DNA from: Candidatus Latescibacterota bacterium
GTDB lineage: Bacteria; Latescibacterota; UBA2968; UBA8231
DNA: 64,000 bases
Assembly (NCBI GenBank): GCA_965197905.1
Contig: CBDAOB010000003.1
Location: 1,136,349 to 1,200,348, forward strand
Direction of reading: 5' to 3'
Part shown: piece after piece, positions 45,401-60,211 of the stretch
Position numbering within the stretch: the first letter of the stretch is position 1
Layout: each line of letters opens with the position of its first letter
Made by a program: the position numbers and the translations under genes
Notes under the pieces: generated by a model
Told to the model about the DNA's origin: nothing
Database searches by the model: none
What the model saw: the letters and a program-made list of their open reading frames with translations, nothing else

Positions 45401-46860
45401 CTCTGGTCGAGACCGGCCCCGCGGTGCAGGGCATCAGCACCTCCGGCGCTCAGGTGGAGGTCACCTACAACGAACCGGTCGAGTTGTCGCTGCGGTTCAG
45501 CACACAATCCGATCTCAGCGGGGCCTCGGTCATTTCGGTGGTCGAACGCAAACGCCCCCACAGTGTCGAGCTCACCGGATTGGAGCCGGGTACGGTCTAT
45601 TACGTGGGCCTTGAGGCGCGGGACCGGGCGGGCAACAGCGCCGATCACAGTGTCTCCTTCGAAACGGCAAACGAAGCGGATGTCACACCACCCAATTTTA
45701 CCACCTTGCCGTTTGCAACGGACATCGGTTCCGCCAGTGCGCGGGTGCTCTGGTCCCTCGATGAACCTGCGGACGGCGAGCTCGTCTTCAGTACGGATTC
45801 AGGTGAGCAGACGGTTTTGCGGCAGTTGTTGCGACAGCAAGCGCACGCATTCGATCTAACCGATCTGCAGCCGGAAACCGACTACCTCTTTCAGGCGACC
45901 TCGGTGGACGGCAGTGGTAACAGCAGCTCGACCTCTTCCAACTTCCGCACCCTGGTGGAACAGGTCCACCCGGTCCAGATCACCGCCGGGCCGATGCTGG
46001 TGCGCGCGGACAACACCAGCGCCACCATCTTTGTTCGACTCGATCGCGCGGCAGAAGCTCAGATCCTCTACTGGCCGGCCGGGTCTCCCAATCTCAGCCG
46101 CACCGAGGATCGCGGCCTGAACACCGAGCACAGCGTCGTCCTCACGAACCTGGAGCCGGGGACAGGTTATCAGTACACCGTGACCGCCGGCGGCACCACC
46201 GAGGCGTCTGGAAGTTTCGATACCGAAGCCGAAGCCGACACCGATGCCCCCGAGTTTATTGGACCGCCGGTGGTGGCGGATCGTCAGCACGACCGTGCCC
46301 GCATCGAGTGGACAACGAACGAGGTGGCAGACAGCGAGGTCCACTTCAACCTTGCGGGCGGCGACACCCGGCAAGTGATCCTACCCGAGGATGCCCGCGA
46401 TCATGGTGTCGTGCTAACGAACCTGGAACCCAACAGCAGTTATTCTTATCGCGCCTTCAGCACCGATCCCGCCGGCAACCGCGCTTCCGGGCCGCAATCA
46501 TCCTTCGATACACCGGCGGGACCAGACCTGATGCCGCCGGCCATCACCGGTCATCCCATCGTTCGCGGCCTCACCCACAACAGCGTTGTCCTGGCATTGT
46601 CTACCAACGAACCGACCACCGCGAGTGTGCGCTCCGCGGACCCTCGCCGATCTGCAACGCGGAACCACCTACAACGTCATCGTCACCAGCAACGACCTGG
46701 CAGGAAACCAGGTGAGCACCGATCCATCCGGAACCGAGCTTCACAGCCAGGAACATCGTTTCAACACGCGTGGCAATGCCGACAACGAACCGCCGGTGTT
46801 CGCGGTAAATCCCACGGTGGACTGGACCAACGCCACTGCGGTAGTGGCATGGGGGACTAA
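33430..46860 (+). CDS. Giant secreted repeat protein A, main ORF (signal peptide, 6 FG-GAP repeats, 5x IPT/TIG + VCBS propeller modules, MBG/PKD/cadherin-like and FN3-like repeats); continues after a frameshift
   Basis: 4476-aa ORF; six KIADNTGGF..GDLDNDG units; PTITSxSP..GDxVTITGTNF domains; dozens of DxDGDGKxD repeats; W.TDE..H...L.P.T.Y units; frame lost at ~46635. Confidence 0.88.
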   Translation: MSVTGSSKIRNASLPARVAVGAVSLALLLCAVSPLSAQTCQVKSVQKIADNTGGFGVTLTNSDNFGVSVVAIGDLDNDGVEDLAVGAHNDDTGGAGRGALYVLLMNSNGTVKSHQKIADNTGGFGVTLTNSDFFGVSVAALGDLDDDGVKDLAVGAFFDDTGGTGRGAVYVLFMNTNGTVKSHQKIADNTGGFGVTLTDSDAFGAAVVGLGDLDNDGVEDLAIGAKSDDTGGTDRGAVYVLFMNTNGTVKSSQKIADNTGGFGVTLADSDFFGGRLAALGDFDGDGIEDLASGAQNDDTGGTDRGAFYVLLLNSDGTVKSHQKIADNTGGFNVTLTDSDVFGGSSVTNLGDLDGDGVADLAAGAMLDDTGGTDRGALYLLLMNSNSTVKSNFKIADNTGGFDFALTNTARFGIAAVGLGDLDGDGVGDLAIGADKDDTGGTDRGALWVVFLTKVPTITAISPKTGKVGDSVTITGTEFDATAANNKVFFGATKATVTAASLSSLTVTVPTGATFGPLQVIVHNRTAESDDFFQPTFSGEFPTIDASTLAAKVDFATGTDPVSVHLADFDGDGKVDMAVSNSTTNNVSVFENTSSGSITFAAKADFAAGTSPWGMDVGDLDGDGLLDMAAPNNTTNNVSVFRNTSSGSISFAAKVDFASGTVPNDLAFADFDGDGKLDMVTANNTATTASVFRNTSTSGSITAASFSAKVDFTTGTTPSAVEVADIDGDGETDFVVTNFATDNVSVFRNTSTAGTIDAASFAAKVDFASGTGPRFLALGDVDGNGKPEMVVANETANTISIFRNTAVSGMITGGSFAAKVDYTVQTDPYNIAFGDLDGDNKPDIAVSHRTTAAFSLFRNKSVSGTIDANSLDTRVDFTTANDLRGVAIGDLDGDQKPDVVVTDFTANNLSVFRNLTPTTLAPTITSVSPLLGKIGDTITITGTNFDATTTNNTVYIGGIKATVVTASATTLTVTMPAGATVGPVRVTVKERTAVSNKILGATYSGADQTITAGVLAEAVDFTAGTGPTGAIAADIDGNGVTDIVLSNFTSNTLSVHRNTSTAGAINAGSFAAKVDVNTGTTPRWLTVHDFDGDGLLDLATAAGGTDNLEVYRNTSMVASVSFAGAVTFATNNDPNVVAASDIDGDGKLDIGVTTWNGGAGTTVSLYRNESSNGVINFAAKSDVTTGTGPERVAFGDVDGDGKHDMAVANSAGNNVSVYRNTSTAGTIDGSTFAAAVNFAVGTTPQDVRLADVDGGGALDLLVTNTASNSFSVLRNTAISGVINASSFAAKQDFTTGTLPRALAIGDLSGNGRPDLVTSNGTANTTSLFRNNGSSGSVSFAAKVDLTTGTGPYGNVIADFDGDGRPELAHTNFTDNDVSVLHNIADPPRITSGSPQTGKVGDAVAINGENFDPTFGNNTVYFGPTKATVTAGSATSLTTSVPTGATFGPISVTAKQRTAISDKPFLPTFGGEFPTIDASTFAAKQDFTAGTGPQYVATGDLDGDGKTDMVVGNFTAATVSVFRNTSTSGTIDGSSFAAKVDLTADTQTRGVAVGDLDGDGKLDIAVTNSGANSVSLFHNMSSVGSISFAAKVDFTTGAAPFAVEINDLDGDGKPDLAVANKTANTVSVFRNLSVSGTIDASSFAAKVDYTPGTDLRLLALGDLDGDGAPDMAVANRTSNNLSVFRNTATAGTIDASSFAAKVDFTTGTNPNGVAIGDLDGNGQPELVVSNEANNLSVFRNTAVSGVINAGSFAAKIDYTTAVGPSGLAMGDIDGDGKLDIATAIGGGADVVSVFRNTSVTGTIDANSLAPKVDFATTSDVIGLAIADLDGDEKPEIAVVNNTGAAVSVFHNITPTVPAPTITSFTPTSAKPGELVTITGTNFDTTPGNNTVFFDPIKATVTSASATSLTVTVPDGAGYGPLTVTRKERTAISDDYFLPTYGGVAQTIADGTLASQITFATGVNPNGTGTADIDGDGLPELVTVNFGGNSISVFLNTGTAGGFNGSSFAAKSDFTVGTGPGYAAIGDIDGDGLPDVATSNLSASTASVLRNMSTTGSLAFDAKVDFTTGTSPSGVALGDIDGDGKPDLATPNFGTTTVSVFRNTSKSGAIDATSFSPKVDFTVLTQPHNVAFGDIDQDGKLDMVVVNRGSNMISAFRNTATAGEITASSFAAKVDVATGATPFTVTLSDFDGDGLLDAAVPNNGAGNFSTLRNTSMTGSISFAAAVDFTAGTGPYGSAAGDIDGDGLPDVAIPNNTSNTTSVFENTSVSGTISFATKVDLTTATGPQGAAIADFDGDDRPDIAISSSSNNLSIFHNIADPPTISSFTPTSGHVTKSITVTGANFDTTPANNILFFGATKANITAATATSLTADAPLGATFSPLHLEVNGRTAFSDKPYLPTYAGTATIDASSFVAKVDFATGTTPQPLVVGDMDGDGKPDLVISNDPDIVSVLRNTSSTGSITAGSFAAKVDFATSSTPVGLDLGDLDGDGKLDVAIANNLSTSVSLFRNLSSSGSISLAAKVDHTTGTQPTDVAIDDLDGDGKADLAISNLSTNNASVLRNISVEGTIDANSFAAKQDYATATSPQAIAVADIDGDGKPDLLVPGFGTNQLSVLRNTSTAGTVDASSFAAKVDFATASIPTDVITADIDGDTKPDVIVPNFSSTSVSVFRNKSISGTIDGTSLAAKVDYTLGASPIAATAGDMDGDGKIDLAVASQGSDFVSVLRNQAVSGTINAASLATRVDYTTGDQPSGTAMGDLDGDGRSDLVVTNKNDNNLSIFRNKSTLKTTGLAGTSTMAPGAEVQLFRIGLASYGTYTLNSIALALSDLSTATGITSGDLDVRLYKSTDETFDSGDTHIGTQTTINFGGTTTITPTATETPLNHSFYIVTARISTTPIDKHAFKLGFTLDGVTTSVGSEGLAITASDANNVTIDVVATKWIFVSIPTGGTHLQELTPQPGMEAHDAAGNVDRDINGTVTLTLNPSGSLSRTAFTATEGGAPTWFLTISGAGSGRTLTVSGLGPADATTPAFDIAKADATVTLNNLNAEFDGNVKAGGATTDPSGLAVAFSYNVFGTPLPGPLSAPGSFGVTATVSDPNYQGSATGTITITAPAPPAAALDVSPTSGNPPLSVTFTDRSTGDISSWFLEPQADGGRVFEDLSSPVTVTYSTPGTHTIFLTVSGAGGRSQIETTISVNSPPAVGTIGAASTNEDEKLVLDLSTLDPATGTWSVSGTDGALIAAVAVEMDAITFTPVANTSGSDVVTITRTSSNGLSSSQEVTLTWTAVDDPPAIVDLAGSFSAAEEETIHVGGSGNASDIDSDPGSFSWSASGFDGGLVAVAAGGAGGVDFTPVTHAHGETGATITLTDPVSGATASQAVTLTWTPVNDVPSVPVAGFPANGVTDVPLAPLISWSASDADNDDLVYDLALGLAGSAATVSSGQTGTTFSASGLAPGATYEWKVVARDPAGATSEASFTFTTEADLRGPVISGVGVAATESSATFGWDTDEPATSFVRLVPEEGAAAKTVAMAQQVAVPVEIASNELVTRHQLIASDLVPGTSYSYELSSSDARGNSSELFTGRLLTLAAPDRVAPMFLVDPYVEGVTQQSAVVRWQTDEQGDSRVSYALVAAAKATAASQASGGEIVLDELVEEHSVRLSGLVAATEYSFQVSSRDAAGNLSDGRGGSFSTDAAADLTAPEFTSGPAASSVTDVSAVVVLSADELVTAEIRFDTDDNLNDGRLAAAGQAQTEHSIELTGLEAATTYSFQVAIRDEGGNEHLSGLRSFTTLLAPDAVPPLFLAGPAVEGLTDQSAVLVLTANEPVRMQVLFSSDPNLDGATLKANNELQLTHTVQLTNLEPDTEYFFEVAIRDGSDNETEPVRGNFLTEDEEDITPPQIVELFAEGVGFERATVVWRTTELTTGFLEFNLAAAAKIAAATERGRIQLTDPAREHRVQLTNLKPGSGYGLHVVMQDAQGNRGERTGFIKTLIEEDLLPPLVETGPAVQGISTSGAQVEVTYNEPVELSLRFSTQSDLSGASVISVVERKRPHSVELTGLEPGTVYYVGLEARDRAGNSADHSVSFETANEADVTPPNFTTLPFATDIGSASARVLWSLDEPADGELVFSTDSGEQTVLRQLLRQQAHAFDLTDLQPETDYLFQATSVDGSGNSSSTSSNFRTLVEQVHPVQITAGPMLVRADNTSATIFVRLDRAAEAQILYWPAGSPNLSRTEDRGLNTEHSVVLTNLEPGTGYQYTVTAGGTTEASGSFDTEAEADTDAPEFIGPPVVADRQHDRARIEWTTNEVADSEVHFNLAGGDTRQVILPEDARDHGVVLTNLEPNSSYSYRAFSTDPAGNRASGPQSSFDTPAGPDLMPPAITGHPIVRGLTHNSVVLALSTNEPTTASVRSADPRRSATRNHLQRHRHQQRPGRKPGEHRSIRNRASQPGTSFQHAWQCRQRTAGVRGKSHGGLDQRHCGSGMGD

Positions 46861-48622
46861 CGAACGGGCGAGCTCGCGAGTGGACTGGCGCGGTGGCGGA
46901 AAGTCGGGCTTCGTGGAGGACAACGCTCTGGTGCGCGAGCACAGCCGGACGGTCACCGGGCTGATACCTCGCACCGGTTATCGCTTCATGATCACGTCGG
47001 TGGATCGGGCGGGCAACGCATTGACCTGGGGCTCGGTCGACGGCCCGATGAAAGCGATCGAAGGAGCGGCCAAGATCTTGCAGCCGCCCGGGGGCGGCGG
47101 ATTCTTCGTGACCGACAACGTCGCGGACACCCAGCTGCCGTTGATCACCCGCGGGCCCGAGGTGAGCGAGAAAACGGCGGAAACATTGACGATTTTCTGG
47201 GAAACGAACGAGCTGGCCGACAGCTTCGTACGATTTGGCACGACCTCCCAGCTCGACGAGGTGGTGGGCACCGCCCAGGACGTGCAGACGCACACGGTAA
47301 CCCTGACCAATCTCGACGCGGGGGCTCAATACCATTATAAAGTCGAATCCACCGATCCCTCCGGGAATGGAGCCACCGAAAGCATCGTCGCGGTCACCGC
47401 TACCGCCGCAGAGGTGGACCTGGTGCCGCCGCGTTTCATTACCGAACCGGAAGTGGAGGCGCGTACCGATCAGGAGATCGTCCTGGAGTGGCGCACCGAC
47501 GAGGCCGGCGCCGCACGCATCGAATATGAGACCCCGGACGGTGAGCGCTTGACTCGCAATGTGGAGAGCAGGCAAACCGCCCAACAGATCAGTCTGGTCA
47601 ACCTCGAAGCCGATACCGAGTACGATCTTTCCATCTATGTCAGTGATGCCAGCCAGAACGAGATTCCCGAGCCATTCCTGCTCACTGCGCGAACCGACGG
47701 CGAACCCGACCTGGAGCCGCCGCGAATCCTCAATGGTCCCGCGGTGGAGGCAGTGACCGATCGCGGCGCGACGGTCGTCTGGACCACCGACGAGCTGTCG
47801 GACTCTTACGTCGATTACGACAGCAAGCCGTACCTGGGAGCGGTGGTAGGCGTACCCCTCTACACCCGCGATCATCGAGTCACGCTCACCAATCTGAATG
47901 CGTCCACCTCCTACTTCTTTCGCGTCGGCTCCACCGATCGAGCGAACAACGGCCCGGAGGTCAGCGATGTGCTGAGCTTCGAGACTCTCGCCGGTGCCGA
48001 TGAAACCCCACCTGACGCACCTGAAGATCTTCAGGTAGTGGCAGGGGCCACCTCGAATCTGGTGCAGTGGACTGCGAACACGGAGCCGGATCTGGGCGGG
48101 TATTCAGTTTTCAGGGAAACCGACGAGGGCGGCTTCGAGACCGTGGCGAGTCAGCTGCAGGAACCGGTGTATTTGGATGAAGGGCTGGAGAGCGGAGAGA
48201 CCTACCGTTATCGGGTAACCGCGAGTGACCGTGAAACGCCACCGAATGAGAGCAAGCCAAGCGAGATCGCCGATGGCACCCCCGACGACGAAAACGTGGC
48301 GAGCGCGCCGGCGATTCTGGGATTGGAACAGGGCGCCACGTTGAGTCGACCCATCCTGGTGATTCAGAACGCCATTCCGGTGGGTGCGGCGGACGAGCTG
48401 ACCTACACGGTGCAGGTGTCCACAGCTTCCACGTTTAGAAGCATCGTGGCACGCGGGGGCAACATCGCCGAAGGGTTCGGCGGAGCAACCCGCTGGCGAG
48501 TGAACAGGGCGTTGACCACGACCCGCTCCTATTGGTGGCGGGCACGTGCGTTCGACGGGCGTTTCAAAGCGGGTGGAGCCGGCCGGTGCGGTTGCGACCG
48601 AACCAGGCAAGCGTGCCGCTGA
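46586..48622 (+). CDS. Giant protein A, middle fragment (FN3-like repeats)
   Basis: Same W.TNE/TDE...H.VTL.NL...T.Y units, plus WTANTEPDLGGY FN3; entered by a frameshift at ~46635 and exits at ~48566. Confidence 0.75.
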   Translation: MSWHCLPTNRPPRVCAPRTLADLQRGTTYNVIVTSNDLAGNQVSTDPSGTELHSQEHRFNTRGNADNEPPVFAVNPTVDWTNATAVVAWGTNERASSRVDWRGGGKSGFVEDNALVREHSRTVTGLIPRTGYRFMITSVDRAGNALTWGSVDGPMKAIEGAAKILQPPGGGGFFVTDNVADTQLPLITRGPEVSEKTAETLTIFWETNELADSFVRFGTTSQLDEVVGTAQDVQTHTVTLTNLDAGAQYHYKVESTDPSGNGATESIVAVTATAAEVDLVPPRFITEPEVEARTDQEIVLEWRTDEAGAARIEYETPDGERLTRNVESRQTAQQISLVNLEADTEYDLSIYVSDASQNEIPEPFLLTARTDGEPDLEPPRILNGPAVEAVTDRGATVVWTTDELSDSYVDYDSKPYLGAVVGVPLYTRDHRVTLTNLNASTSYFFRVGSTDRANNGPEVSDVLSFETLAGADETPPDAPEDLQVVAGATSNLVQWTANTEPDLGGYSVFRETDEGGFETVASQLQEPVYLDEGLESGETYRYRVTASDRETPPNESKPSEIADGTPDDENVASAPAILGLEQGATLSRPILVIQNAIPVGAADELTYTVQVSTASTFRSIVARGGNIAEGFGGATRWRVNRALTTTRSYWWRARAFDGRFKAGGAGRCGCDRTRQACR

Positions 48623-49509
48623 CCTCGGAAGACTTTGACGGCGACGGCGCGGTCTCTTTCTCCGACTTCTTCATCCTGGCCAACGGTTTTGGCAGCGGTG
48701 ATCCGATTCTTGACCTAGATCGGGATGGCCGCGTTGGTGCGGGTGATCTGAGTCAGTTCAAAACACAGTTCGGCAAGCAGGTTGCTAGCAAGCTGCTGTT
48801 CTCGCAGGGCGCGGAGGTGGCCGAAGGATCTGTGGTGGATGTGGCGGCGGAAGCCGTGGGTGATCAGGTGCGCCTGCGGTTGCGGTTTGCCGGCGTGCCG
48901 AGGTTGAGCGGTTACGGGCTGTCGGTCTACGCGGATCCGCCGGTTTTGCGGTATGTGGACCGCGTCGATTCATCGACCGTTCTGGCGCTGGACCGTTCTC
49001 TGTCGCTGGTGCACGAAACGGGTGGCACGCTCAACTTCGCCGACCACCTGAAGGGTAGGGTGGCCGGTGTGGACCTGGAAGAGGAATCGACGCTGGAGTT
49101 ATTGTTCGCGCTGGACGGTCCGCCGCAGAACGTGGAGCTGTTTGTGCAGGAAGGGTTTCTCGGGCGCGGCGCCGGCCGCGCCTGGAGCGTGGAGCAGCTG
49201 GGCAGCGCGCGGGTATTACCCACGACCTATGCCCTGTTTCCCAACTACCCGAATCCGTTCAATCCTTCAACCATGATACCTGTTGGTGTTCCGGCGGTAG
49301 CCGCGTCCCGGCGGCTTGAGCTTCGCCTGTTCAATCTCCTTGGGCAGGTGATTCGTCGATGGGACATGGACGGATGGAATCCCGGCTTCTACCGGGTGAT
49401 GTGGGACGGTCGGGACGGCGAGGGCCGGCCGGTGGCCAGCGGGGTGTACCTGGTGCAGTTCGACGCGGGCGAGATGGTGTCCACCCGGAAGCTGATGCTA
49501 CTTCGGTAG
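48532..49509 (+). CDS. Giant protein A, C-terminal fragment (EF-hand/dockerin-like + FlgD Ig/T9SS-CTD-like domain)
   Basis: DFDGDGAVSFSDF..DLDRDGRVGAGD; NYPNPFNPST..WDGRDGEGRPVASGVY..RKLMLLR. Confidence 0.82.
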   Translation: MVAGTCVRRAFQSGWSRPVRLRPNQASVPLTSEDFDGDGAVSFSDFFILANGFGSGDPILDLDRDGRVGAGDLSQFKTQFGKQVASKLLFSQGAEVAEGSVVDVAAEAVGDQVRLRLRFAGVPRLSGYGLSVYADPPVLRYVDRVDSSTVLALDRSLSLVHETGGTLNFADHLKGRVAGVDLEEESTLELLFALDGPPQNVELFVQEGFLGRGAGRAWSVEQLGSARVLPTTYALFPNYPNPFNPSTMIPVGVPAVAASRRLELRLFNLLGQVIRRWDMDGWNPGFYRVMWDGRDGEGRPVASGVYLVQFDAGEMVSTRKLMLLR

Positions 49510-49633
49510 ACAAGAGTTAGCGGAAATTCGATGTCCCTCGTGGCAGATATAGCGAGGCGGAGGAATTGTATATTATTAGGATGTCGAAGCTAATGGCTGC
49601 CCGGTGGCGGCCTGCACTAAGGAGATCGTGTCG

Positions 49634-49831
49634 ATGAAATACAAAGTTGCCTTGGTCGAGTCTGATGAAGGATACAGTGTTTCTGTTCCTGGGCTTCCTG
49701 GCTGTTGGTCACAGGGAGTAACCGAGGTGGAGGCACTTGCAAACATTGAGGTAGCCATCCGCGAATACCTTGCAGCTGTCGACGAGCTACTGGATGATGC
49801 TGAAGTTCGAGAGGTCGAGTTGACGTTATAG
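49634..49831 (+). CDS. hicB: HicB-family antitoxin
   Basis: GYSVSVPGLPGCWSQG.T..EALANI..AI. Confidence 0.9.
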   Translation: MKYKVALVESDEGYSVSVPGLPGCWSQGVTEVEALANIEVAIREYLAAVDELLDDAEVREVELTL

Positions 49832-50047
49832 ATGCCAAAGATCCCAGGCGTCAATCACCTGCGGGCTGTTAGTGCCCTGGAAAAGGCTGGATTCCAGGTC
49901 GTTCGACAAGGAAAACACATTGTAATGAGCGATGGTACACGGATATTGACGATTCCCCGAAGCAACCCAATCAATGCGTTCACATTAGGTGGTATTGTTC
50001 GAGACGCTGGCCTCACAGTTGAGCAGTTCCGCGATTTCTTGAAATAG
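49832..50047 (+). CDS. hicA: HicA-family toxin
   Basis: ALEKAGF..RQGKHIVM...TIP...TLGGIVRDAGLTVEQF. Confidence 0.88.
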   Translation: MPKIPGVNHLRAVSALEKAGFQVVRQGKHIVMSDGTRILTIPRSNPINAFTLGGIVRDAGLTVEQFRDFLK

Positions 50048-50076
50048 TTCAAACTTCCGCTAACACCGTGTTTACG

Positions 50077-50825
50077 GTGCGCCGTGCTAAGGCGCACATC
50101 TTCAGTGGGTGCGAATCCCACCCGGCAAGGGTCGCTCCAGCCGGTAGCAATCGGAGCAGTGGTGGAGGCGACGAAGCCGCTGAAGCCTCCGGTGTAGAGG
50201 GTCGCCTTGGGCGACTTGGCGAGCACACAGGCCGTAACGTGAGTAAACGCTGAGCAGGCCTCGAAAAGTGTAATGCGGAAGCCGACCTGCCCGTAAACCA
50301 GGGAAGGCCGCTGCAGCTGGGGAAGTCGAGCGACAAGCGCACTCAGCTGTTCCGCCGGGGTAGTGGCGACAGCATGTGTGTAAGAGGAGATGTGGCGCAA
50401 CACGGGAAGCCTCATCCGGTGGAAGCAGCGAGTGCCTCCAACCGGTAACCCGCGAGGGCCAGACTGGGCTGGATGAGGTGGCGGACAGGCGCGTAGTACC
50501 GAGGAAGCCGGGTAACTCCGGTGGAGGGAAGGGGCCTGACTTCGGACATGCTGCGGAAGTGCAGAGGGTTGGAGAGTGGCGTGAGCCTATTGCCTCCAGC
50601 AGTAAGACTAGTATGCATCGGAAGCAGCTTGACTACCAGGTGAAGTCCTTGTGGCGTGTGCCTGGATGTGACGTTCGTCGGGAAGCCGGATGCGGGAGAT
50701 CCGCACGTCCGGTTTGAGGCGGCGGGAACTGGAAACGTAGCGATGGGAGTCGGACTGAGGGCTATGGCGAAAGCCATGGGGAACCCACCGAACCCTAAGG
50801 CTGGCGCGCCAGTTCTCGACCCTAC
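50077..50825 (+). mobile_element. ORF-less group II (IIB-like) intron
   Basis: 5' GTGCG; domain V AAGCCGGATGCGGGAGATCCGCACGTCCGGTTT (~50683-50716); 3' end CGACCCTAC; EBS1/EBS2 match the upstream exon; domain IV holds only a short ORF remnant. Confidence 0.88.
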
Positions 50826-52810
50826 GTGCGCCGTGCTAAGGCGCACATCTTCAGTGGGTGCGAATCCCACCCGGCAAGGGTCGCTCCAGCCGGTAGCAAT
50901 CGGAGCAGTGGTGGAGGCGACGAAGCCGCTGAAGCCTCCGGTGTAGAGGGTCGCCTTGGGCGACTTGGCGAGCACACAGGCCGTAACGTGAGTAAACGCT
51001 GAGCAGGCCTCGAAAAGTGTAATGCGGAAGCCGACCTGCCCGTAAACCAGTGAAGGCCGCTGTCGTTGGTGAAGAGAGCGATGCATGCAACCAACGATTC
51101 CGCCGGGGTAGTGGCGACGGCATGTATGGAAGAGGAGATGTGACGCAACACGGGAAGCCTCATCCGGCAGAAGCGGCGTGCTTCACCTGGTAACCCGCGA
51201 GGGCCAGACCGGGCTGGATGAGGTGGCGGAGAGGTCCGTAGTACCGCTGAAGCCGGGTAATGCCGGTGGAGGGAAGGGACCTTAGTTCAAGGGCAACGTC
51301 CCCAGGAGAGAGAGCCAGGAGATTGGCATGGGCCTAGCAACTCCGGAAACGGTTAGAAAACTCCAGCAGGCGTTGCATGCCAAAGCGAAGGAGTCGCCGA
51401 CTTTTCGTTTCTACTCACTGTATGACAAGGTGTATCGCGAAGACGTACTGGCACACGCCTATCAGTGCAGCAAAGCCAAAGGCGGAGCAGCAGGTATAGA
51501 CGGCCAGACGTTCTCAGATATCGAGTCGTATGGGGTAGATCGATGGTTGGGCGAACTGGCGGAAGCGCTCAGGAAGAAGACGTATCGCCCTCAGGCGATT
51601 CGCCGGGTATACATACCCAAACGCGACGGGACGCAGCGTCCACTGGGCATAGCCACGGTGCGAGACCGGGTAGCGCAGACAGCGGTGGTGGTGGTATTGG
51701 CCTCAATCATCGAAGCCGATCTGCCTCCGGAGCAATACGCGTATCGCCCGGGTCGCAACGCCCTGGACGCGGTACGCGCGGTGCACGCCCTGCTTACCTC
51801 CGGTCACACGGAGGTGGTGGACGCAGACCTGAGCGGGTATTTCGACAGCATTCCCCATGCAGAGCTGATGACATCGGTGGCCCGTCGTGTCAGCGACAAA
51901 CACCTACTGCATCTGATCAAGATGTGGTTGGTAGCCCCGGTGGAGGAACGCGATGAGCGGGGAAGAATCCGTCGAACGACCCAGAGCAAGGATCAGCGTC
52001 GCGGCATACCACAGGGCTCGCCACTGTCGCCGCTGCTGGCCAACCTGTACATGCGCCGATTCATCAAGGGTTGGAAGCAGCGCGGGCACGAGAAGCAGTT
52101 GGATGCCCACATCGTCAACTATGCCGACGACTATGTGATCTGCTGTCGTGGTACGGCGTCCACAGCCCGGGGTGTCATGACCGCGCTGATGGCTCGTCTA
52201 AAGTTGACGGTGAACCAGGGTAAGACCAAGTGCTGCTCGGTGCCGGACTCGTCGTTCAACTTCCTGGGATACACCATCGGTCGTTGCTACTCTCCACGGA
52301 CGGGGAGAGCGTACATTGGTACCCGACCGTCGAAGCAGGTGATTCGGCGGCTTTGTAGGGAAATCAGTGAGGCGACGCAGCGGCGTAGGTTTCGGGTGGA
52401 TGCAGGTGAGGTAGTGAACCACCTCAATGACATGATGACGGGGTGGGCGGACTACTTCTGTTTGGGTCCAGTCAGTAAGGCCTATACCGTGGTGGATCGT
52501 CACGCGCGCTATCGGCTGCGCCAGTGGTTATGTGGGAAGCATCACCGATCGGGACAAGGTTTGACACGCTACTCGGAGGAGTATCTCGATCAGCGGCTGG
52601 GGTTAGTCAGACTGCAGATGCGGACCCGTAACCTTCCGTGGGCGAACGCATGAATCCTTGTCCGGAAGCCGGATGCGGGAGATCCGCACGTCCGGTTTGA
52701 GGCGGCGGGGAACCTGAAAACGCGGCTATGGGAGCCGGACTGAGGGCCACGGCGAAAGCCCTGGACAACCCACCGGACCCTGAGGCAGGCGCGTCAGTCC
52801 TCGACCCTAC
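50826..52810 (+). mobile_element. Full-length group II intron encoding an RT/maturase
   Basis: 5' GTGCG directly after the first intron; domain V at ~52666-52699; 3' end CGACCCTAC. Confidence 0.92.
51328..52653 (+). CDS. ltrA: Group II intron reverse transcriptase/maturase (no endonuclease domain)
   Basis: AAGIDG, RRVYIPK..RPLGI..RDRVAQ, DADLSGYFDSI, PQGSPLSPLLAN, YADD, FNFLGY, maturase GWADYF; 441 aa. Confidence 0.95.
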   Translation: MGLATPETVRKLQQALHAKAKESPTFRFYSLYDKVYREDVLAHAYQCSKAKGGAAGIDGQTFSDIESYGVDRWLGELAEALRKKTYRPQAIRRVYIPKRDGTQRPLGIATVRDRVAQTAVVVVLASIIEADLPPEQYAYRPGRNALDAVRAVHALLTSGHTEVVDADLSGYFDSIPHAELMTSVARRVSDKHLLHLIKMWLVAPVEERDERGRIRRTTQSKDQRRGIPQGSPLSPLLANLYMRRFIKGWKQRGHEKQLDAHIVNYADDYVICCRGTASTARGVMTALMARLKLTVNQGKTKCCSVPDSSFNFLGYTIGRCYSPRTGRAYIGTRPSKQVIRRLCREISEATQRRRFRVDAGEVVNHLNDMMTGWADYFCLGPVSKAYTVVDRHARYRLRQWLCGKHHRSGQGLTRYSEEYLDQRLGLVRLQMRTRNLPWANA

Positions 52811-52820
52811 CCGCGTCGCA

Positions 52821-53098
52821 ATGTCCCCGATTCACCCAGGAGAGCTCCTGCTCGAGGAGTTTCTCGAGCCATTGGGGCTTAGCCAAGATCGCTTGGCAAA
52901 GGACATCTCGGTGCCGCCCCGGCGGATCAATGAGATAGTACAAGGCAAGCGTGTACAGCTCTTCGACTAGCGCGTTACTTCGGTACCACGGACCGGTTTT
53001 GGCTCAACCTACAATCCCGATACGATCTGGAATTGGAGAAGGATCGTCTCGGTGAGAGATTGGAAACTGAGGTGCTGGTTCTGGAGCGGACCGAGTAG
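52821..53098 (+). pseudogene. higA: HigA-family antitoxin, frameshifted by a small internal deletion
   Basis: [30 protein letters not shown], then in another frame [25 protein letters not shown]...; the usual SITAD-like segment is missing. Confidence 0.8.
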
Positions 53099-54339: not shown

Positions 54340-54576
54340 GTGATACCTGTCGGCATACCCGCGATAGCCGCCTCCCGGCGGCTGGAGCTGCGTCTGTTCA
54401 ATCTCCTAGGACAGGTGATTCGGCGGTGGGATATGGACGGGTGGAATCCCGGTTTTTACCAGGTGATGTGGGATGGGAGGGACGGCCAGGGACGTGCCGT
54501 GGCCAGCGGCGTATACCTAGTAAAGTTCGATGCCGGACAGAAGATTTCCACCCGGAAGCTGATGTTGTTGCGGTAA
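54340..54576 (+). pseudogene. Orphan copy of the giant-protein C-terminal FlgD-like domain
   Basis: 69/78 aa identical to 49273-49509; lacks the upstream NYPNPFNP part and a signal peptide. Confidence 0.8.
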
Positions 54577-55219: not shown

Positions 55220-55445
55220 GTTGGAGAAAACAACAACACATCTACGGTGTTGTCAAACGCTCCAACAGTTGGAATGAAGGGTGCAATTTCTACTCAAATG
55301 TTGATCCGCATCACAATTCTTGGTCGTTTTTTGGTTATTGTATAACAACCAGTCGGGCTGGATCGGCCGAAGAGCAAAAGGACCGTAGTATTTGCCTGTG
55401 AACGAGATTCGGATACCCAGAGCTGTGCTCAATTCCCCGTATACG

Positions 55446-57434
55446 ATGGCAAGATATCTGTGCCTGGTCGGCTGTTTGGTCGCGTGGCCACTCGCTGCCC
55501 AGACCATACAGGTCAAGAGCAGTCAGAAGATCGCCGACAATACCGGCGGTTTCGGCGTTACCCTTACCGACAGCGAGTTTTTCGGCAGTGGGATGGCCGC
55601 TGTGGGCGATCTCGACAATGACGGAGTGGAAGATCTCGCCGTCGGCGCGCCTTTCGATGATACGGGCGGCACCAATCGTGGCGCCGTCTATGTGCTATTC
55701 ATGAACAGCAACGGCACGGTGAAGAGCACCACGATTAGTGCCGCCGGTGTCATCCAGGTCCGCTCCGACTACTATGTCTTCGACGCCGTCGTTGTCCAAG
55801 TCTCCCACACCCGCCACTCGGGGCGCGTAAAGCTTGGTGACGTCGACAGCGACGGGAAGCTCGATCTGGCTGCTCTCAACTCGCCAGACAACACCGTCTC
55901 GGTCCTGCGAAACACCGGCTCCATTGGCACTGTATCATTCGCAGCGAAGGTCGATTTGCCGGTCGGCACACTACCGTCGGGCGTGGGGATAGACGACCTC
56001 GACGGCGATGGTAAAATCGATCTGGTTACAAGCAATCGCACCACTGACAACGTATCGCTCCTCCGCAATAAGAGTACCCCTGGAAGTATTGTCTTCAACA
56101 CAAAAGTCGACTTCCCGGCTGGCGACGATCCTTTTGACGTCACCACTGCCGACCTCGACGGCGACGGAAAAGCGGACGTCCTCGTCCCTAACCTCATCGA
56201 CGCCGACCTATCCGTATTTCGCAATCGGACGTTGACTACACCAGCGCCGAGGGTGACGTCCATCAGTCCGTTGTCTGGCAAGGTAGGTGATGCGGTAACG
56301 ATCACGGGGACGAATTTCAGCACGACGCCGGCGAGTAACGTGGTTCGGTTTGGCGGTGCAGAGGCGACGGTAGCGTCGGCCTCGGCGACGTCGTTGACGG
56401 CGACGGTGCCTGATGGTACGCCTCATGATCGGGTGAGTGTGACCGTCAACAATCGCACCGCCCATTCGGATGAATACTTCAAGCCGACGTTTGACGGCAT
56501 GTTTCCGGCGATCGACGCCTCGACGTTTGCAGCCAAGGTAGACTTCGCAACGGGCACCAGTCCTCTGTGGATAGTTTCTGGCGATCTGGATGGCGATGGA
56601 AAGGTCGACTTGGCAGTTCCCAACAGCGTTGCTAATACGGCCTCTGTTTTACGCAATACCAGCACTTCCGGGACTGTAGCTTTCGCGCCGAAAGTAGATT
56701 TCGCTGCCAATACCTTTCCCTATTCCGTCGGTTTTGGAGACATCGATGGTGATGGCGAGCTCGATATGGCGGTTACCAACGATAACAGCAGTAACGTCTC
56801 GGTTTACAAAAATACCAGCACTTCGGGCTCGATTTCTTTCACGGCCAAGGTTGATTTTGCCACGGCGCTCACGCGACCGGACGCGGTTGAGTTAGGGGAC
56901 ATCGACGGTGATGGCAAGATCGACATGGCGATTCCGAGCAATTCGGGATCCAATGCGATTTCGGTTTTTCGCAATACCAGTGTGTTGGGCGCCATCGATG
57001 CGTCCTCGTTTGCTCCGAAAGTTGATTTTACTACGGGTCTGGTGCCGACGGACGTCGCTCTGGGCGATATTGATGGCGACGGCGAGCCTGACATGGCGGT
57101 GGCAAACAACAACGTTGCCACGATTTCAGTCTTTAGATACACCGGTCTGCCCGGGACCATCGACGCGTCGACGTTTGCCGCAAAGGTCGACTTCACAACG
57201 GGCACCAATTCGGGGCGGGTCAGATTAGGAGACATCGATGGCGACGGCAAGCTCGACATGGCTGCCTCAAACGGACCGGACAACACGGTTTCGGTGCTTC
57301 GTAGTACAAGCGCGGTGGGGTCGCCTTCCTTTGCTGCCAAGGTAGACCTTACCGTGGGTCTTCGCCGCGTGACGTTGCCCTTGGGGATGTCGACGGCGAT
57401 GGCAAGCTCGACGTGGTCGCCGGTAACGGCATAA
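55446..57434 (+). CDS. Giant secreted repeat protein B, N-terminal fragment (signal peptide, 1 FG-GAP, partial VCBS propeller, IPT + VCBS)
   Basis: MARYLCLVGCLVAWPLAAQ signal; KIADNTGGF unit as in protein A; frame lost at ~57360. Confidence 0.8.
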   Translation: MARYLCLVGCLVAWPLAAQTIQVKSSQKIADNTGGFGVTLTDSEFFGSGMAAVGDLDNDGVEDLAVGAPFDDTGGTNRGAVYVLFMNSNGTVKSTTISAAGVIQVRSDYYVFDAVVVQVSHTRHSGRVKLGDVDSDGKLDLAALNSPDNTVSVLRNTGSIGTVSFAAKVDLPVGTLPSGVGIDDLDGDGKIDLVTSNRTTDNVSLLRNKSTPGSIVFNTKVDFPAGDDPFDVTTADLDGDGKADVLVPNLIDADLSVFRNRTLTTPAPRVTSISPLSGKVGDAVTITGTNFSTTPASNVVRFGGAEATVASASATSLTATVPDGTPHDRVSVTVNNRTAHSDEYFKPTFDGMFPAIDASTFAAKVDFATGTSPLWIVSGDLDGDGKVDLAVPNSVANTASVLRNTSTSGTVAFAPKVDFAANTFPYSVGFGDIDGDGELDMAVTNDNSSNVSVYKNTSTSGSISFTAKVDFATALTRPDAVELGDIDGDGKIDMAIPSNSGSNAISVFRNTSVLGAIDASSFAPKVDFTTGLVPTDVALGDIDGDGEPDMAVANNNVATISVFRYTGLPGTIDASTFAAKVDFTTGTNSGRVRLGDIDGDGKLDMAASNGPDNTVSVLRSTSAVGSPSFAAKVDLTVGLRRVTLPLGMSTAMASSTWSPVTA

Positions 57435-60211
57435 GCGACAACATTTCGGTGCTCAAGAACAAGAGCACGGTCGGTGCGATTTCTTTTAACACGAAGGCGG
57501 ACTTCACGGCCGGTGATGATGCCTTGGCTTTGGCCATCAATGATTATGACGGTGATGGGAAGTCGGATATTGCGGTCGTAAACTGGGGTGACAGCGACGT
57601 TTCGGTGTATCGCAACCTGACGTTGACCACGCCGGCTCCGACGGTGTCGTCGATCAGTCCATTGTCGGGCAAGGTGGGTGATGCGGTGACGATCACGGGG
57701 ACCAATTTCGATACGACGCCGGCGAGTAACGTGGTGTGGATTGGGGGTGCTCAGGCGACGGTGACGTCGGCCTCGACGACCTCGCTGACGGTCAGTGTGC
57801 CTGCCGGGGCGACGTTTGATCGGGTGAGCGTGACGGTCAACAACCGGACGGCTCAATCAGACGACTTCTTCATGACCACCTTTGATGGTGAATTCCCGAC
57901 GATTGACGCGTCATCGTTGGCCGACAAAGTCGATTTTTCGACGGGGACATTCCCAAGTCTCATGGCTATTGGAGATGTGGACGGCGATGGAAAGCTTGAT
58001 ATGGCGGTTGCCAACGTGAACTCCGACAATGTGTCCGTATTTCTCAACTCGGGTAGTGCGGGTACTGTTTCGTTTGCGACAAAAGTGGATTACGCGGAGA
58101 CCACTGATCCGGTAGACGTGACCTTCGGTGACGTTGACGGAGATGGGGAACTGGATATGGCCGTTTCGGACTGGAGCTCCGGAGCGGGAACTCAGGTTTC
58201 CGTACTCCGTAACTTGAGTACGCTCGGAACTGTGTCCTTTGCTGCAGAGGTGGATTTCACAGCCGGTTCCTCGCCGACCGGCACCGCTATTGGTGACTTG
58301 GATGGAGATGGAAAGCTTGATCTTGCCGTTGCGAAGGACACTGATAACGCGGTCGCTGTATTGCGAAATACTACGACCGCCGGCACTATCGATGCTTCCT
58401 CGTTCGCTGCGAAAGTCGATTTCACAACGGCCAACGGTGCAAATCATGCCGCGATCGGCGATCTTGACGGTGACGGCGTGCCCGATCTAGCAGTCGTGGC
58501 TCGGGCGGGTTCTCAGATCTCCGTCCTTCGCAACACCTCGACGCCCGGAACGATCGATGCCTCCTCATTTGCTGCGAAGGTCGATTTCCTCACGGGTACA
58601 AGTCCAAACGAAGTAGTGATTGCTGACTTTGATGGCGACTCAAAGAACGACATGGCCATCCAGAATCTTGCTTCCATCAACATCTCGGTGTTTCGAAACA
58701 CAAGCACACCGGGAACGATCACCGCCGGATCGTTCGCCGCCAGGGTGAACTTTGCCACGGGAACGGGTCCCCAGGTCGTTGCGACGGGCGACATCGATGG
58801 GGACGGCAAGCTGGATCTGGCAACGCCGAATTTCAACGTCAACACAATTTCGGTTTTCCGGAACACCAGTACATCTGGTACGATTGATGCTTCTTCATTT
58901 TCGCCCAAAGCTGATTTTTCGACGGGAACTGGCCCATCGGGAATCGCCATAGCGGATTTGGACGGGGATGGCAAACCGGACGTGACAGCGACGAACTTCA
59001 ACGCGAACACGGTATCGGTGTATCGCAACCTCACGACCACTATACCGTTACCCACGATCGCCACTTTCAGTCCTCTTTCTGGACGTGTCGGAAAGACCAT
59101 CTCCATTACCGGAACGAACTTCGACGCCATTGCCGGCAATAACTCTGTCTACTTCGGCGCCACAAAAGCGAACGCATCTACAGCTACCAGTACTTCACTT
59201 ACGGTGGACGTGCCGGTGGGCGCCACCTTCAGTCCCATCACGGTGAACAGGAGCAATCGGGTCACCGAGTCGAAGGGATTCTTTGTGCCGACCTTCTCCA
59301 GTGCCGCTGCCACGATCGATGCGTCGACGTTCGCAGCCAAGGTCGACTTCGTAACCGGCACAGATCCATCTTCGCTGACAATTGCCGATTTCGACGGGGA
59401 CGGCAAACCGGATTTGGCGGCGCCCAACCGAACCTCGAACACAGTTTCCGTTCTTCGAAACACCTCCTCAACGGGCTTGATAGACGCTTCATCCTTTGCT
59501 ACCAAGATCGACCTGACATCTGCCGTAAAGCCAGACGGCATTTCTGTGGGTGATCTGGACGGGGACGGAAGCATCGACATTGCTGCTGCGCACGATAATC
59601 CGACCAACGTGGTCTCCGTGTTCAGAAATACCAGTTCCAGCGGCGCCGTCTCCTTCGCTACGAAGGTGGACTTTACGGTGGGAACGAGTGCTCATGGAGT
59701 CGAAATTGCCGATCTGGACGGGGACGGAAAGCTCGATTTTGTAACAGCCAACGGTGGTGCCAATACCGTCTCGGTGATTCGTAACACGAGCGTTAGTGGT
59801 GCCATCACGTCCAATTCGTTCGCGGCCAAAGTTGATTTTGCCACTGACCTGGGCCCACAACGACTGTCCATCGCCGATCTCGATGGCGACGGCAAACCAG
59901 ATCTGGCCGTAGGCACTGCAACTGGAGATGCGGTATCTGTACTGCGAAACACAGCTACCTTCGGCATCGTAGACGGTACTTCATTTGCGGGCAACGTTGA
60001 CTTCGGTGCCGGAGATTTCGCCAATGGTGTGATAATTGCCGACATGGATGGAGACGAGAAATCCGATCTTACCGTCGCCAACAGTTCGGACAACACGTTT
60101 TCCATGATTCGAAACACCAGCACCTCGGGGTCATTAACGGCGCGTCGTTCGCTCCGACGGTGGATGTTGCGACGAATGCAGATCCGCGGCGGCTGTCGGT
60201 CGGAGATCTGA
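57413..60211 (+). CDS. Giant protein B fragment 2 (two IPT/TIG + VCBS propeller modules)
   Basis: PTVSSISPLSGKVGDAVTITGTNF, DxDGDGKxD repeats; frame lost at the G run ~60127-60130. Confidence 0.78.
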   Translation: MVAGNGISDNISVLKNKSTVGAISFNTKADFTAGDDALALAINDYDGDGKSDIAVVNWGDSDVSVYRNLTLTTPAPTVSSISPLSGKVGDAVTITGTNFDTTPASNVVWIGGAQATVTSASTTSLTVSVPAGATFDRVSVTVNNRTAQSDDFFMTTFDGEFPTIDASSLADKVDFSTGTFPSLMAIGDVDGDGKLDMAVANVNSDNVSVFLNSGSAGTVSFATKVDYAETTDPVDVTFGDVDGDGELDMAVSDWSSGAGTQVSVLRNLSTLGTVSFAAEVDFTAGSSPTGTAIGDLDGDGKLDLAVAKDTDNAVAVLRNTTTAGTIDASSFAAKVDFTTANGANHAAIGDLDGDGVPDLAVVARAGSQISVLRNTSTPGTIDASSFAAKVDFLTGTSPNEVVIADFDGDSKNDMAIQNLASINISVFRNTSTPGTITAGSFAARVNFATGTGPQVVATGDIDGDGKLDLATPNFNVNTISVFRNTSTSGTIDASSFSPKADFSTGTGPSGIAIADLDGDGKPDVTATNFNANTVSVYRNLTTTIPLPTIATFSPLSGRVGKTISITGTNFDAIAGNNSVYFGATKANASTATSTSLTVDVPVGATFSPITVNRSNRVTESKGFFVPTFSSAAATIDASTFAAKVDFVTGTDPSSLTIADFDGDGKPDLAAPNRTSNTVSVLRNTSSTGLIDASSFATKIDLTSAVKPDGISVGDLDGDGSIDIAAAHDNPTNVVSVFRNTSSSGAVSFATKVDFTVGTSAHGVEIADLDGDGKLDFVTANGGANTVSVIRNTSVSGAITSNSFAAKVDFATDLGPQRLSIADLDGDGKPDLAVGTATGDAVSVLRNTATFGIVDGTSFAGNVDFGAGDFANGVIIADMDGDEKSDLTVANSSDNTFSMIRNTSTSGSLTARRSLRRWMLRRMQIRGGCRSEI

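Follow-up and report, generated by a model that had tools for sequence, protein, structure and literature searches.

Tandem introns occur in fungal mitochondria, and the introns TeI3/TeI4 of Thermosynechococcus are reportedly a bacterial case of an intron without an open reading frame (ORF) and of a twintron. Laboratory work on bacterial group II introns has demonstrated that they can insert at an exon-intron junction (PMC12584367, PMC4075523). In Escherichia coli, overexpressed EcKTE56.groEL (class IIB1) retrohomed in tandem as identical copies, with a U-G wobble between exon-binding site 3 (EBS3) and intron-binding site 3 (IBS3) (PMC12584367), and retargeted RmInt1 (class D) needed an engineered C at EBS3, able to pair with the intron's first G, to form a tandem (PMC4075523). 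Reports of tandem homing describe it as a by-product of laboratory work for which EBS3 must carry a particular base. Here we describe a head-to-tail pair of two different group II introns, A and B, in Candidatus Latescibacterota bacterium (GenBank assembly GCA_965197905.1). The window, which is the whole stretch of DNA analysed, is 64,000 nucleotides (nt) long (contig CBDAOB010000003.1, G000:C3:1136349-1200348), and feature positions are given in window numbering. Intron A (50077-50825, 749 nt) has no ORF and ends in CCTAC; intron B (50826-52810, 1985 nt) starts with GTGCG, encodes a reverse transcriptase (RT), and is separated from A by 0 nt. We consider it probable, at roughly 70%, that A re-homed into the exon-B junction using the RT of B. 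The parts of the pair, with EBS1 and EBS2 as the other exon-binding sites and with intron domains I to VI abbreviated DI to DVI, are as follows.

50077 to 50825, + strand: intron A, a group II intron of class F/g3-like type, without an ORF and presumably non-autonomous (present 13 times in the genome, with identity of at least 99.6%).
50131 to 50136, + strand: alpha of A, whose partner alpha' lies in the loop of the DId stem-loop (6/6 pairs in 10/10 aligned introns).
50190 to 50195, + strand: candidate EBS2 of A, CGGTGT, partly within a stem (from exon pairing and stem prediction).
50292 to 50298, + strand: EBS1 of A, CGTAAAC, the same sequence as the attC L' region (from pairing at insertion sites and from sister introns).
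50303, + strand: G at the EBS3 position of A, which faces a G (the first base of B) rather than a C (assigned by analogy with RmInt1, PMC3123198).
50683 to 50715, + strand: DV of A, with an AGC triad and a 5-nt terminal loop.
50716 to 50825, + strand: long DVI and 3' end of A, with a candidate branch-point A at 50819, placed by its distance of 7 nt from the end.
50826 to 52810, + strand: intron B, an RT-encoding class F/g3 group II intron, single copy.
50826 to 51050, + strand: 5' segment of B (225 nt), which shows no difference from the corresponding segment of A and includes the EBS2 candidate and EBS1.
50939 to 50944, + strand: copy in B of the EBS2 candidate, CGGTGT.
51041 to 51047, + strand: EBS1 of B, CGTAAAC.
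51051, + strand: B-specific U that breaks a pair of the EBS1-presenting stem (alignment columns 215/231, C-G in nine introns and C-U in one).
51328 to 52653, + strand: RT/maturase ORF of 441 amino acids, preceded by AGGAG; endonuclease domain not detected.
52666 to 52810, + strand: DV-DVI and 3' end of B.

Both introns match the Rfam model RF02003 (group-II-D1D4-4; 106.8 bits, E 7e-23), and both have a GUGYG start, an AY end, all of DI to DVI, the DV triad and the alpha-alpha' pairing. In an alignment of ten family members, 52 of the 122 predicted pairs in DI-DIII show two-sided changes, DV is conserved, DVI is long, and alpha-alpha' pairs at all six positions in every intron, with compensatory changes in two of them. 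These features argue that intron A is a maintained ribozyme rather than debris. Folding A whole and alone was uninformative (z -1.58); a promoter scan found none, and its three terminator-like sites are at chance level. A sequence-only reading of the window had described the pair, and its limits for A and B and its positions for EBS1, CGGTGT, GTTTACG and ACACCG all agree with the sequence. The layout it gave stands, but it left out the 13 copies of A, the 225 nt shared by A and B, the half attC site in which the pair lies, and the G at position +1, the first base after A.

At every one of the 13 sites of A, the 5' exon offers EBS1 6-7 of 7 possible pairs. At the tandem its partner is GTTTACG (50070-50076), a 7/7 match, whereas against B's own upstream flank it makes none of the seven pairs, which confirms the earlier statement that pairing is found upstream of A only. 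Sister RT introns in two other genomes, G002 and G020 (86% identical to B), have the EBS1 sequence CGTGAAT and matching targets–for example, GTTCACG–and this covariation supports the EBS1 assignment. The earlier EBS2 assignment fared less well: the candidate pairs fully (6/6) with ACACCG (50063-50068) at the tandem, but only one other site is also full (with one wobble), the other 11 offer 3-5 of 6 pairs, and four of the six bases lie within a predicted covarying stem (columns 75-81/115-121). EBS2 was dispensable for splicing in mutated IIE and IIF introns (PMC3753933). The EBS3 position, which in IIB-type recognition of the 3' exon pairs with the base at +1, is a G. The base at +1 is C after 11 of the 12 intact copies of A, after B, and after four of four sister introns; at the tandem it is G.

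By comparing copies within the genome we found that intron A is present 13 times at 99.6-100% identity (12 complete copies and one without the last 49 nt) and intron B once. The A of the tandem is identical to the copy at C3:919022, and these two have T at nt 267, where the other 11 copies and the outgroups have C. B carries the only closely related RT for A in the genome (the assembly is 91% complete, so a further donor may be missing from it); the other RTs, an 11-copy family and one on contig C1, are 30-32% identical to that of B and fall outside the g3 clade. From the 13 near-identical copies and the single closely related RT we infer that A spreads with the RT of B acting in trans. The identity of A and B is uneven: 225/225 at nt 1-225, 197/238 at nt 226-463, and 131/150 at the 3' end. 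There are thus no differences in nt 1-225 and 41 in nt 226-463, where about 12 would be expected in the first 225 nt (Fisher p 0.003, from the pattern of B against the outgroup). This points to recombination, conversion or polishing, by which the target-specifying 5' module would have been exchanged or homogenised between A and B, in either direction, or overwritten in assembly. Just beyond this module, the U at 51051 breaks in B a pair of the EBS1 stem that is C-G in the other nine of the ten aligned introns. A simple deletion of B was rejected as the origin of A, because A and B match at 197/238 in nt 226-463, yet B and introns of other genera match at 216/237.

Several further group II introns accompany this family. 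The truncated copy of A (C3:360466-359767) has the same 60-nt 5' flank as the copy at C2:7475, which suggests a duplicated cassette. Another ORF-less intron at C3:348603-349400 (minus strand), within an attC-like site, has a different 5' half and an A/B-like 3' end. The 11-copy RT-encoding family (C3:277573 and 10 other places) groups with g1 references, and several of its copies share one target sequence, apparently a repeated element. A third RT-encoding intron, at C1:176398-177351, lies just downstream of an attC-like match near C1:178024.

In a congener, G002, one RT-bearing sister intron stands at the orthologous locus, and intron A is absent from this site. Around the sister intron lie the upstream gene end that is also seen in the window, hicB, a deleted hicA and what remains of higA. 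Its insertion site agrees with the tandem site in 16 of the 17 nt before the intron and in 8 of the 9 nt after it, so the outer flanks of the tandem are the halves of one site, and the comparison favours B as the resident intron there. The G002 locus also has an extra cassette-like stretch before the sister intron. Two 5' fragments of related introns are present in G002 (L299 and L316, 132 and 122 nt); L316 is the one with an A/B-type start and a GTTTACG target.

Head-to-tail stacks are a recurrent feature of the family. A search through 185,579 species genomes for places where a 5' end of this family immediately follows an intron-like 3' end found 72 overlapping loci in 36 assemblies. In 57 of these 72 loci, from 22 of the 36 assemblies, DV-DVI lies directly upstream and the junction is a true head-to-tail one; this count is the union of two filters, each of which misses some true junctions. 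The remaining loci are mostly single introns, chance matches or partial ends. Among the names in the assembly titles are Paracoccaceae, Amylibacter, Rhodothermales, Planctomycetota, Acidobacteriota, Longimicrobiales, Acidimicrobiaceae and Gammaproteobacteria. The longest arrays have six units–for example, six of 895 nt, or units of 719, 719, 1999, 1999 and 1999 nt followed by a divergent last unit. One locus (L091) has the same layout as A-B, with an 850-nt ORF-less unit before a 1986-nt RT unit, and L279 also has an ORF-less unit before an RT unit. The last unit is interrupted and the first is whole in 8 of 30 array rows, from five assemblies. The frequency of stacking varies: stacks are common in G061 (48 starts) and in G062 (20 starts), but A-B is the only head-to-tail pair in its own phylum among the 112 listed of 113 starts, which come from 18 of 168 genomes.

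Some other loci from these scans were set aside. In metagenomes 43 of 107 loci passed the filter, and 42 after L172 was dropped for having too little upstream sequence; they are not used as evidence, because on short contigs circles or mis-joins are possible. The 2764-nt last unit in G063, tried as an ORF-less intron with its cognate RT, is actually a nested g2 intron: at three sites in this genome (L257, L249, L262) a g2 RT intron is nested near the 3' end of an ORF-less g3-type intron, and the composite possibly moves as one unit. A close pair in G111 is not head-to-tail. One Rhodothermales assembly (OZ244148) has highly rearranged stacks of intron pieces at several loci (L045, L052, L059), by nested insertion or mis-assembly.

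The RT phylogeny that the sequence-only reading had proposed for settling the intron class groups B with g3 references, and we assign B to class F/g3 on a tree of 22 rows that has no class E, g4, basal-F or class C references. The RT has YADD at residue 265 (g2 RTs have FADD), a TIGR04416 match of 323 bits (cut-off 300) and the domains RVT_1 and GIIM; a domain search gave no match to an endonuclease (D/En) domain. It groups with 99/97 support with Ni.ha.I1 and an Acidithiobacillus caldus fragment, to which it is 47-48% identical and which are both listed as g3 (class F) in Table S2 of PMC3552965, whereas g1, g2, D and unclassified references are 30-35% identical to it. The RNA has traits of the IIE/IIF type as given in PMC3753933, namely the 5-nt DV loop, alpha' in a terminal DId stem-loop and a long DVI, the last a IIF tendency. 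Class E, our first guess, was replaced by class F/g3 after the RT tree, which has no class E reference. Membership of the IIC-attC group was rejected because the RT groups with g3, in a tree without a class C reference, and because of the 7-nt EBS1 and the AGC triad. Passages of PMC8643678 and the supplement of PMC4028801 added nothing on class F.

Re-homing is the best supported origin of the tandem because A forms a copy family, B is its only close RT, the G002 site has a single intron, and arrays recur in the family. The course of events that we infer, including the trans action of the RT and the order of insertion, is the following. The RT-bearing intron B would have occupied an attC site. 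As group II insertion leaves the 5' exon whole, the target (a TAAC-like distal motif, IBS2 and IBS1) would have been rebuilt at the exon-B junction, with the first base of B at +1. The ORF-less sister A, spreading by means of the RT of B in trans, would then have reverse-spliced into this junction despite the G-G mismatch, if class F/g3 tolerates an EBS3-IBS3 mismatch. The 225 shared nt would have a different source, namely recombination or conversion between the two introns in an event of its own. The opposite order, with B inserting behind A, was rejected, because B could not have homed to a flank with 0/7 IBS1 pairs. The sequence-only reading had also proposed re-homing in trans; the proposal gains from the same four observations, but that reading had not considered that a G-G mismatch between EBS3 and IBS3 is needed.

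This mismatch is the main difficulty for simple re-homing, and several other points weigh against it too. Only Watson-Crick IBS3 pairs were found in 88 selected targets of RmInt1 (PMC4075523). In the A/B subfamily C stands at +1 also at non-attC sites, so IBS3 seems to matter there. Homing alone does not explain the 225-nt identity. The hicB and higA flanks agree with those of G002 at 96-98%, but B agrees with the G002 intron at 86%; B need not have been inherited vertically at this site, and an independent insertion or a later replacement is possible. A perfect attC target near C3:295100 is empty. Three array rows of the 30, all of them from one assembly, show rearrangement or point the opposite way, and many are near-identical and uninformative. 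On the mismatch itself the relatives give a wider picture: of 27 distinct natural 3' exons at ordinary sites (28 before the internal boundary of the G063 nested intron was dropped), 8 have A at +1, 7 have C, 3 have G and 9 have T, with G at the EBS3 position, and in the reference Ni.ha.I1 the +1 base is A. The class thus appears to tolerate any +1 base, and the C preference of the subfamily may explain why stacking is seen once in 13 copies.

The mismatch would be irrelevant had a head-to-tail circular cDNA of A crossed over with B within the 225 nt that they share, since homologous recombination does not need IBS3 pairing and so avoids a G-G mismatch in a subfamily that otherwise has C at +1. 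In vitro, true circles have been found for one class F intron (PMC3753933), and neighbouring units are identical in many arrays elsewhere. We nevertheless regard this origin as unlikely: it requires the identity to exist beforehand and leaves it unexplained, junctions elsewhere precede remnants that share only 36-126 nt with the upstream unit or units that are 83-94% identical to it, relatives insert before G at ordinary sites, and no DNA circle was observed. The whole composite, from the 5' end of A to the DVI of B, could instead have been spliced elsewhere and have arrived by reverse splicing as a 2734-nt RNA. Its outer boundaries are indeed matched (IBS1 7/7, +1 C), and the nested twintron of G063, with the same structure at three sites, indicates that composites may move. 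However, the genome has no second A-B composite, G002 has a single RT intron at the site, and the proposal merely shifts the origin of the junction to another place, so that we find it highly improbable.

An assembly artefact, in which A-only and B-only strains were joined or reads of A overwrote the 5' end of B, would account for the tandem or at least for the 225-nt identity. The assembly has 4.5% contamination besides its 91% completeness, copies of A outnumber B by 13:1, the identity ends where divergence rises, and the junction is known from the assembly only; three runs (from two studies, of 24 listed) hold at least 0.75 of the sampled words and are silent on the junction, and the runs with a small share do not bear on habitat. 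Polishing is a possible cause of the identity taken alone. As an explanation of the tandem, an artefact is very unlikely: in this five-contig assembly the 749-nt repeat is resolved 13 times, each copy within its own flanks (a 5' flank is common to two of them), A and B differ over most of their length and so cannot be a collapsed circle, the outer flanks match the halves of one G002 site, and the same layout is seen in unrelated assemblies. The tandem is very probably real, and re-homing of A remains our preferred account of it.

As for splicing, A could leave first and restore a normal B precursor, provided that the IBS3 mismatch is tolerated; in RmInt1 an IBS3 mismatch did not impair excision (PMC3123198). 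Alternatively, the 5' end of A could join DV/DVI of B and both would be released as a 2734-nt unit. B itself is predicted to be unable to leave first, because its flank offers 0/7 IBS1 pairs. The ordered splicing proposed in the sequence-only reading is in line with this bar on B, but the importance that it implied is small: the introns sit between hicA and a remnant of higA, in a truncated attC that is non-coding. The effect on the host is probably nil, since the site is non-coding and already decayed. The label of nested twintron was rejected for A-B, which lie side by side with neither inside the other.

The target site and its neighbourhood have the following features.

49604 to 49831, + strand: hicB-like antitoxin gene, cassette-like (Pfam HicB_lk_antitox, 31.1 bits; the orthologous stretch in G002 is 98% identical).
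49832 to 50047, + strand: hicA toxin gene, with its stop 29 nt before the insertion site (Pfam HicA_toxin, 34.1 bits).
50060 to 50076, + strand: left half of an attC-like site, top strand, with an R''-like CTAAC, an IBS2-like ACACCG, and IBS1 GTTTACG in the L''-box region (from the attC profile and the G002 flank).
52811 to 52819, + strand: 3' exon, consisting of the C at +1 and 8 nt of attC stem, with the rest of the attC deleted (8/9 nt identical to the G002 3' flank).
52821 to 53098, + strand: remnant of the antitoxin gene higA, which has lost an internal part and is fused to what is left of the attC (TIGR02607, 52.9 bits; an intact paralogue lies near C3:706000).

The tandem site keeps the left half of an attC, and only 9 nt of the right half are left before the higA remnant. 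Eight of the 13 copies of A lie in attC-like sites, five of these in an array on contig C2 beside a partial intI on the same strand; a full intI is at C3:204281. Insertion is on the attC top strand, 11-12 nt after TAACA. Four reconstructed C2 sites have R'' (AAC) and R' (GTT) boxes and complementary L regions. A strict attC regular expression found no sites; a profile made from five reconstructed sites, used in its place, gave 38 genome matches (E up to 1). In minimum-energy folds only one of six reconstructed sites (C2:34699) forms a long canonical hairpin. The L' region of these sites is CGTAAAC or near it, the same as EBS1, so the intron is expected to pair with the L'' region as L' would.

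Two large attC arrays of one sequence family occupy C2:5200-37700, with the five copies of A, and C3:293000-363000. A TA(A/G)C-like motif near position -15 of the 5' exon is repeated throughout the clade, at sites of G061, G063 and G065, and coincides with the attC R'' box; it may pre-adapt the class to attC sites. In the window, the segment 49604-55219 consists of toxin-antitoxin genes and remnants (hicBA, higA, a gene for a helix-turn-helix protein, brnTA and a further pair) typical of integron cassettes. It is flanked by two very large repeat proteins (33430-49509 and 55392-63144), each split into several ORFs, which we take to be FG-GAP/VCBS-like. The upstream set ends in a C-terminal sorting-like domain, and this domain is repeated at 54340-54576.

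Stacks recur in nature across many phyla in a class whose EBS3 base is unable to pair with G, and this suggests that class F/g3 disregards the 3' exon. If this is true, targetron design would gain by one constraint fewer, at the price of self-stacking. Stacks of similar units are also substrates for swapping the target-specifying 5' module, as the 225 shared nt suggest, and introns of a lineage with entry into attC at the L box could interfere with the shuffling of integron cassettes, blocking or reshaping it by a route unlike that of IIC-attC introns. We can go further only tentatively, with a fuller picture that is doubtful as a whole. In it, class F/g3 introns would read almost only the 5' exon, so that every insertion restores the target it has used; natural stacks would then be polar, growing at their 5' end with the newest unit in front and recording the order in which the units were inserted. 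The ORF-less parasite A would have capped the genome's only RT donor; B would be translatable but would excise only after A and with a weakened EBS1 stem, so that its RT would mostly spread A (13 copies against one). The lineage would also target integrons in a new way, its EBS1 copying the attC L' and pairing with L'' on the top strand.

In the open-licence literature, outside which most subscription papers lie, we found neither natural side-by-side class F arrays nor class F targeting of attC, nor natural family-wide stacking without IBS3 pairing, nor a mobility study of class F/g3. The "tandem insertion" of PMC6907783, considered as a parallel, concerns integrative and conjugative elements (ICEs). 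The single pair is of modest interest; family-wide stacking without IBS3 pairing, a parasite placed before the only donor, and top-strand attC targeting deserve the attention of specialists.

Among described introns, the class F/g3 members Ni.ha.I1 and D.a.I1 closely resemble B: they share its RT clade (99/97), the lack of an En domain, a size of about 1.9-2.0 kb with an ORF of 430-440 amino acids, the 5-nt DV loop, the alpha' stem-loop and the long DVI (PMC3552965, PMC3753933). The class F/g3 accounts in the cited parts of these papers do not describe tandem arrays, ORF-less families or attC targeting. ORF-less bacterial introns served in trans (PMC4424553) are like A in lying beside a related RT donor and in homing repeatedly into intron-rich sites. 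The bacterial and archaeal twintrons described in the same paper are nested inside another intron, whereas A and B stand side by side with no exon between them. As is proposed for the A-B pair, retargeted RmInt1 is a case of a bacterial intron without an En domain inserting at its own 5' junction (PMC4075523). Compared with the EcKTE56.groEL tandems, A-B is natural, consists of two different introns, and has at the EBS3 position a G that is unable to pair with G. IIC-attC introns, like A and B, insert into attC sites of integron arrays (PMC7923331, PMC4424553). They enter the bottom strand at R'' (TTGT/T), against the cassette orientation and by recognition of a hairpin (PMC7923331); the cited parts of that paper also report a single IIC intron located in a top strand, a single CL1 intron immediately behind an attC, and class E fragments within a CALIN (a cluster of attC sites lacking an integron integrase), with no class F. 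Unlike the IIC-attC introns, the A/B lineage uses the top strand, where it inserts directly behind the L'' region by way of the 7-nt EBS1 pairing.

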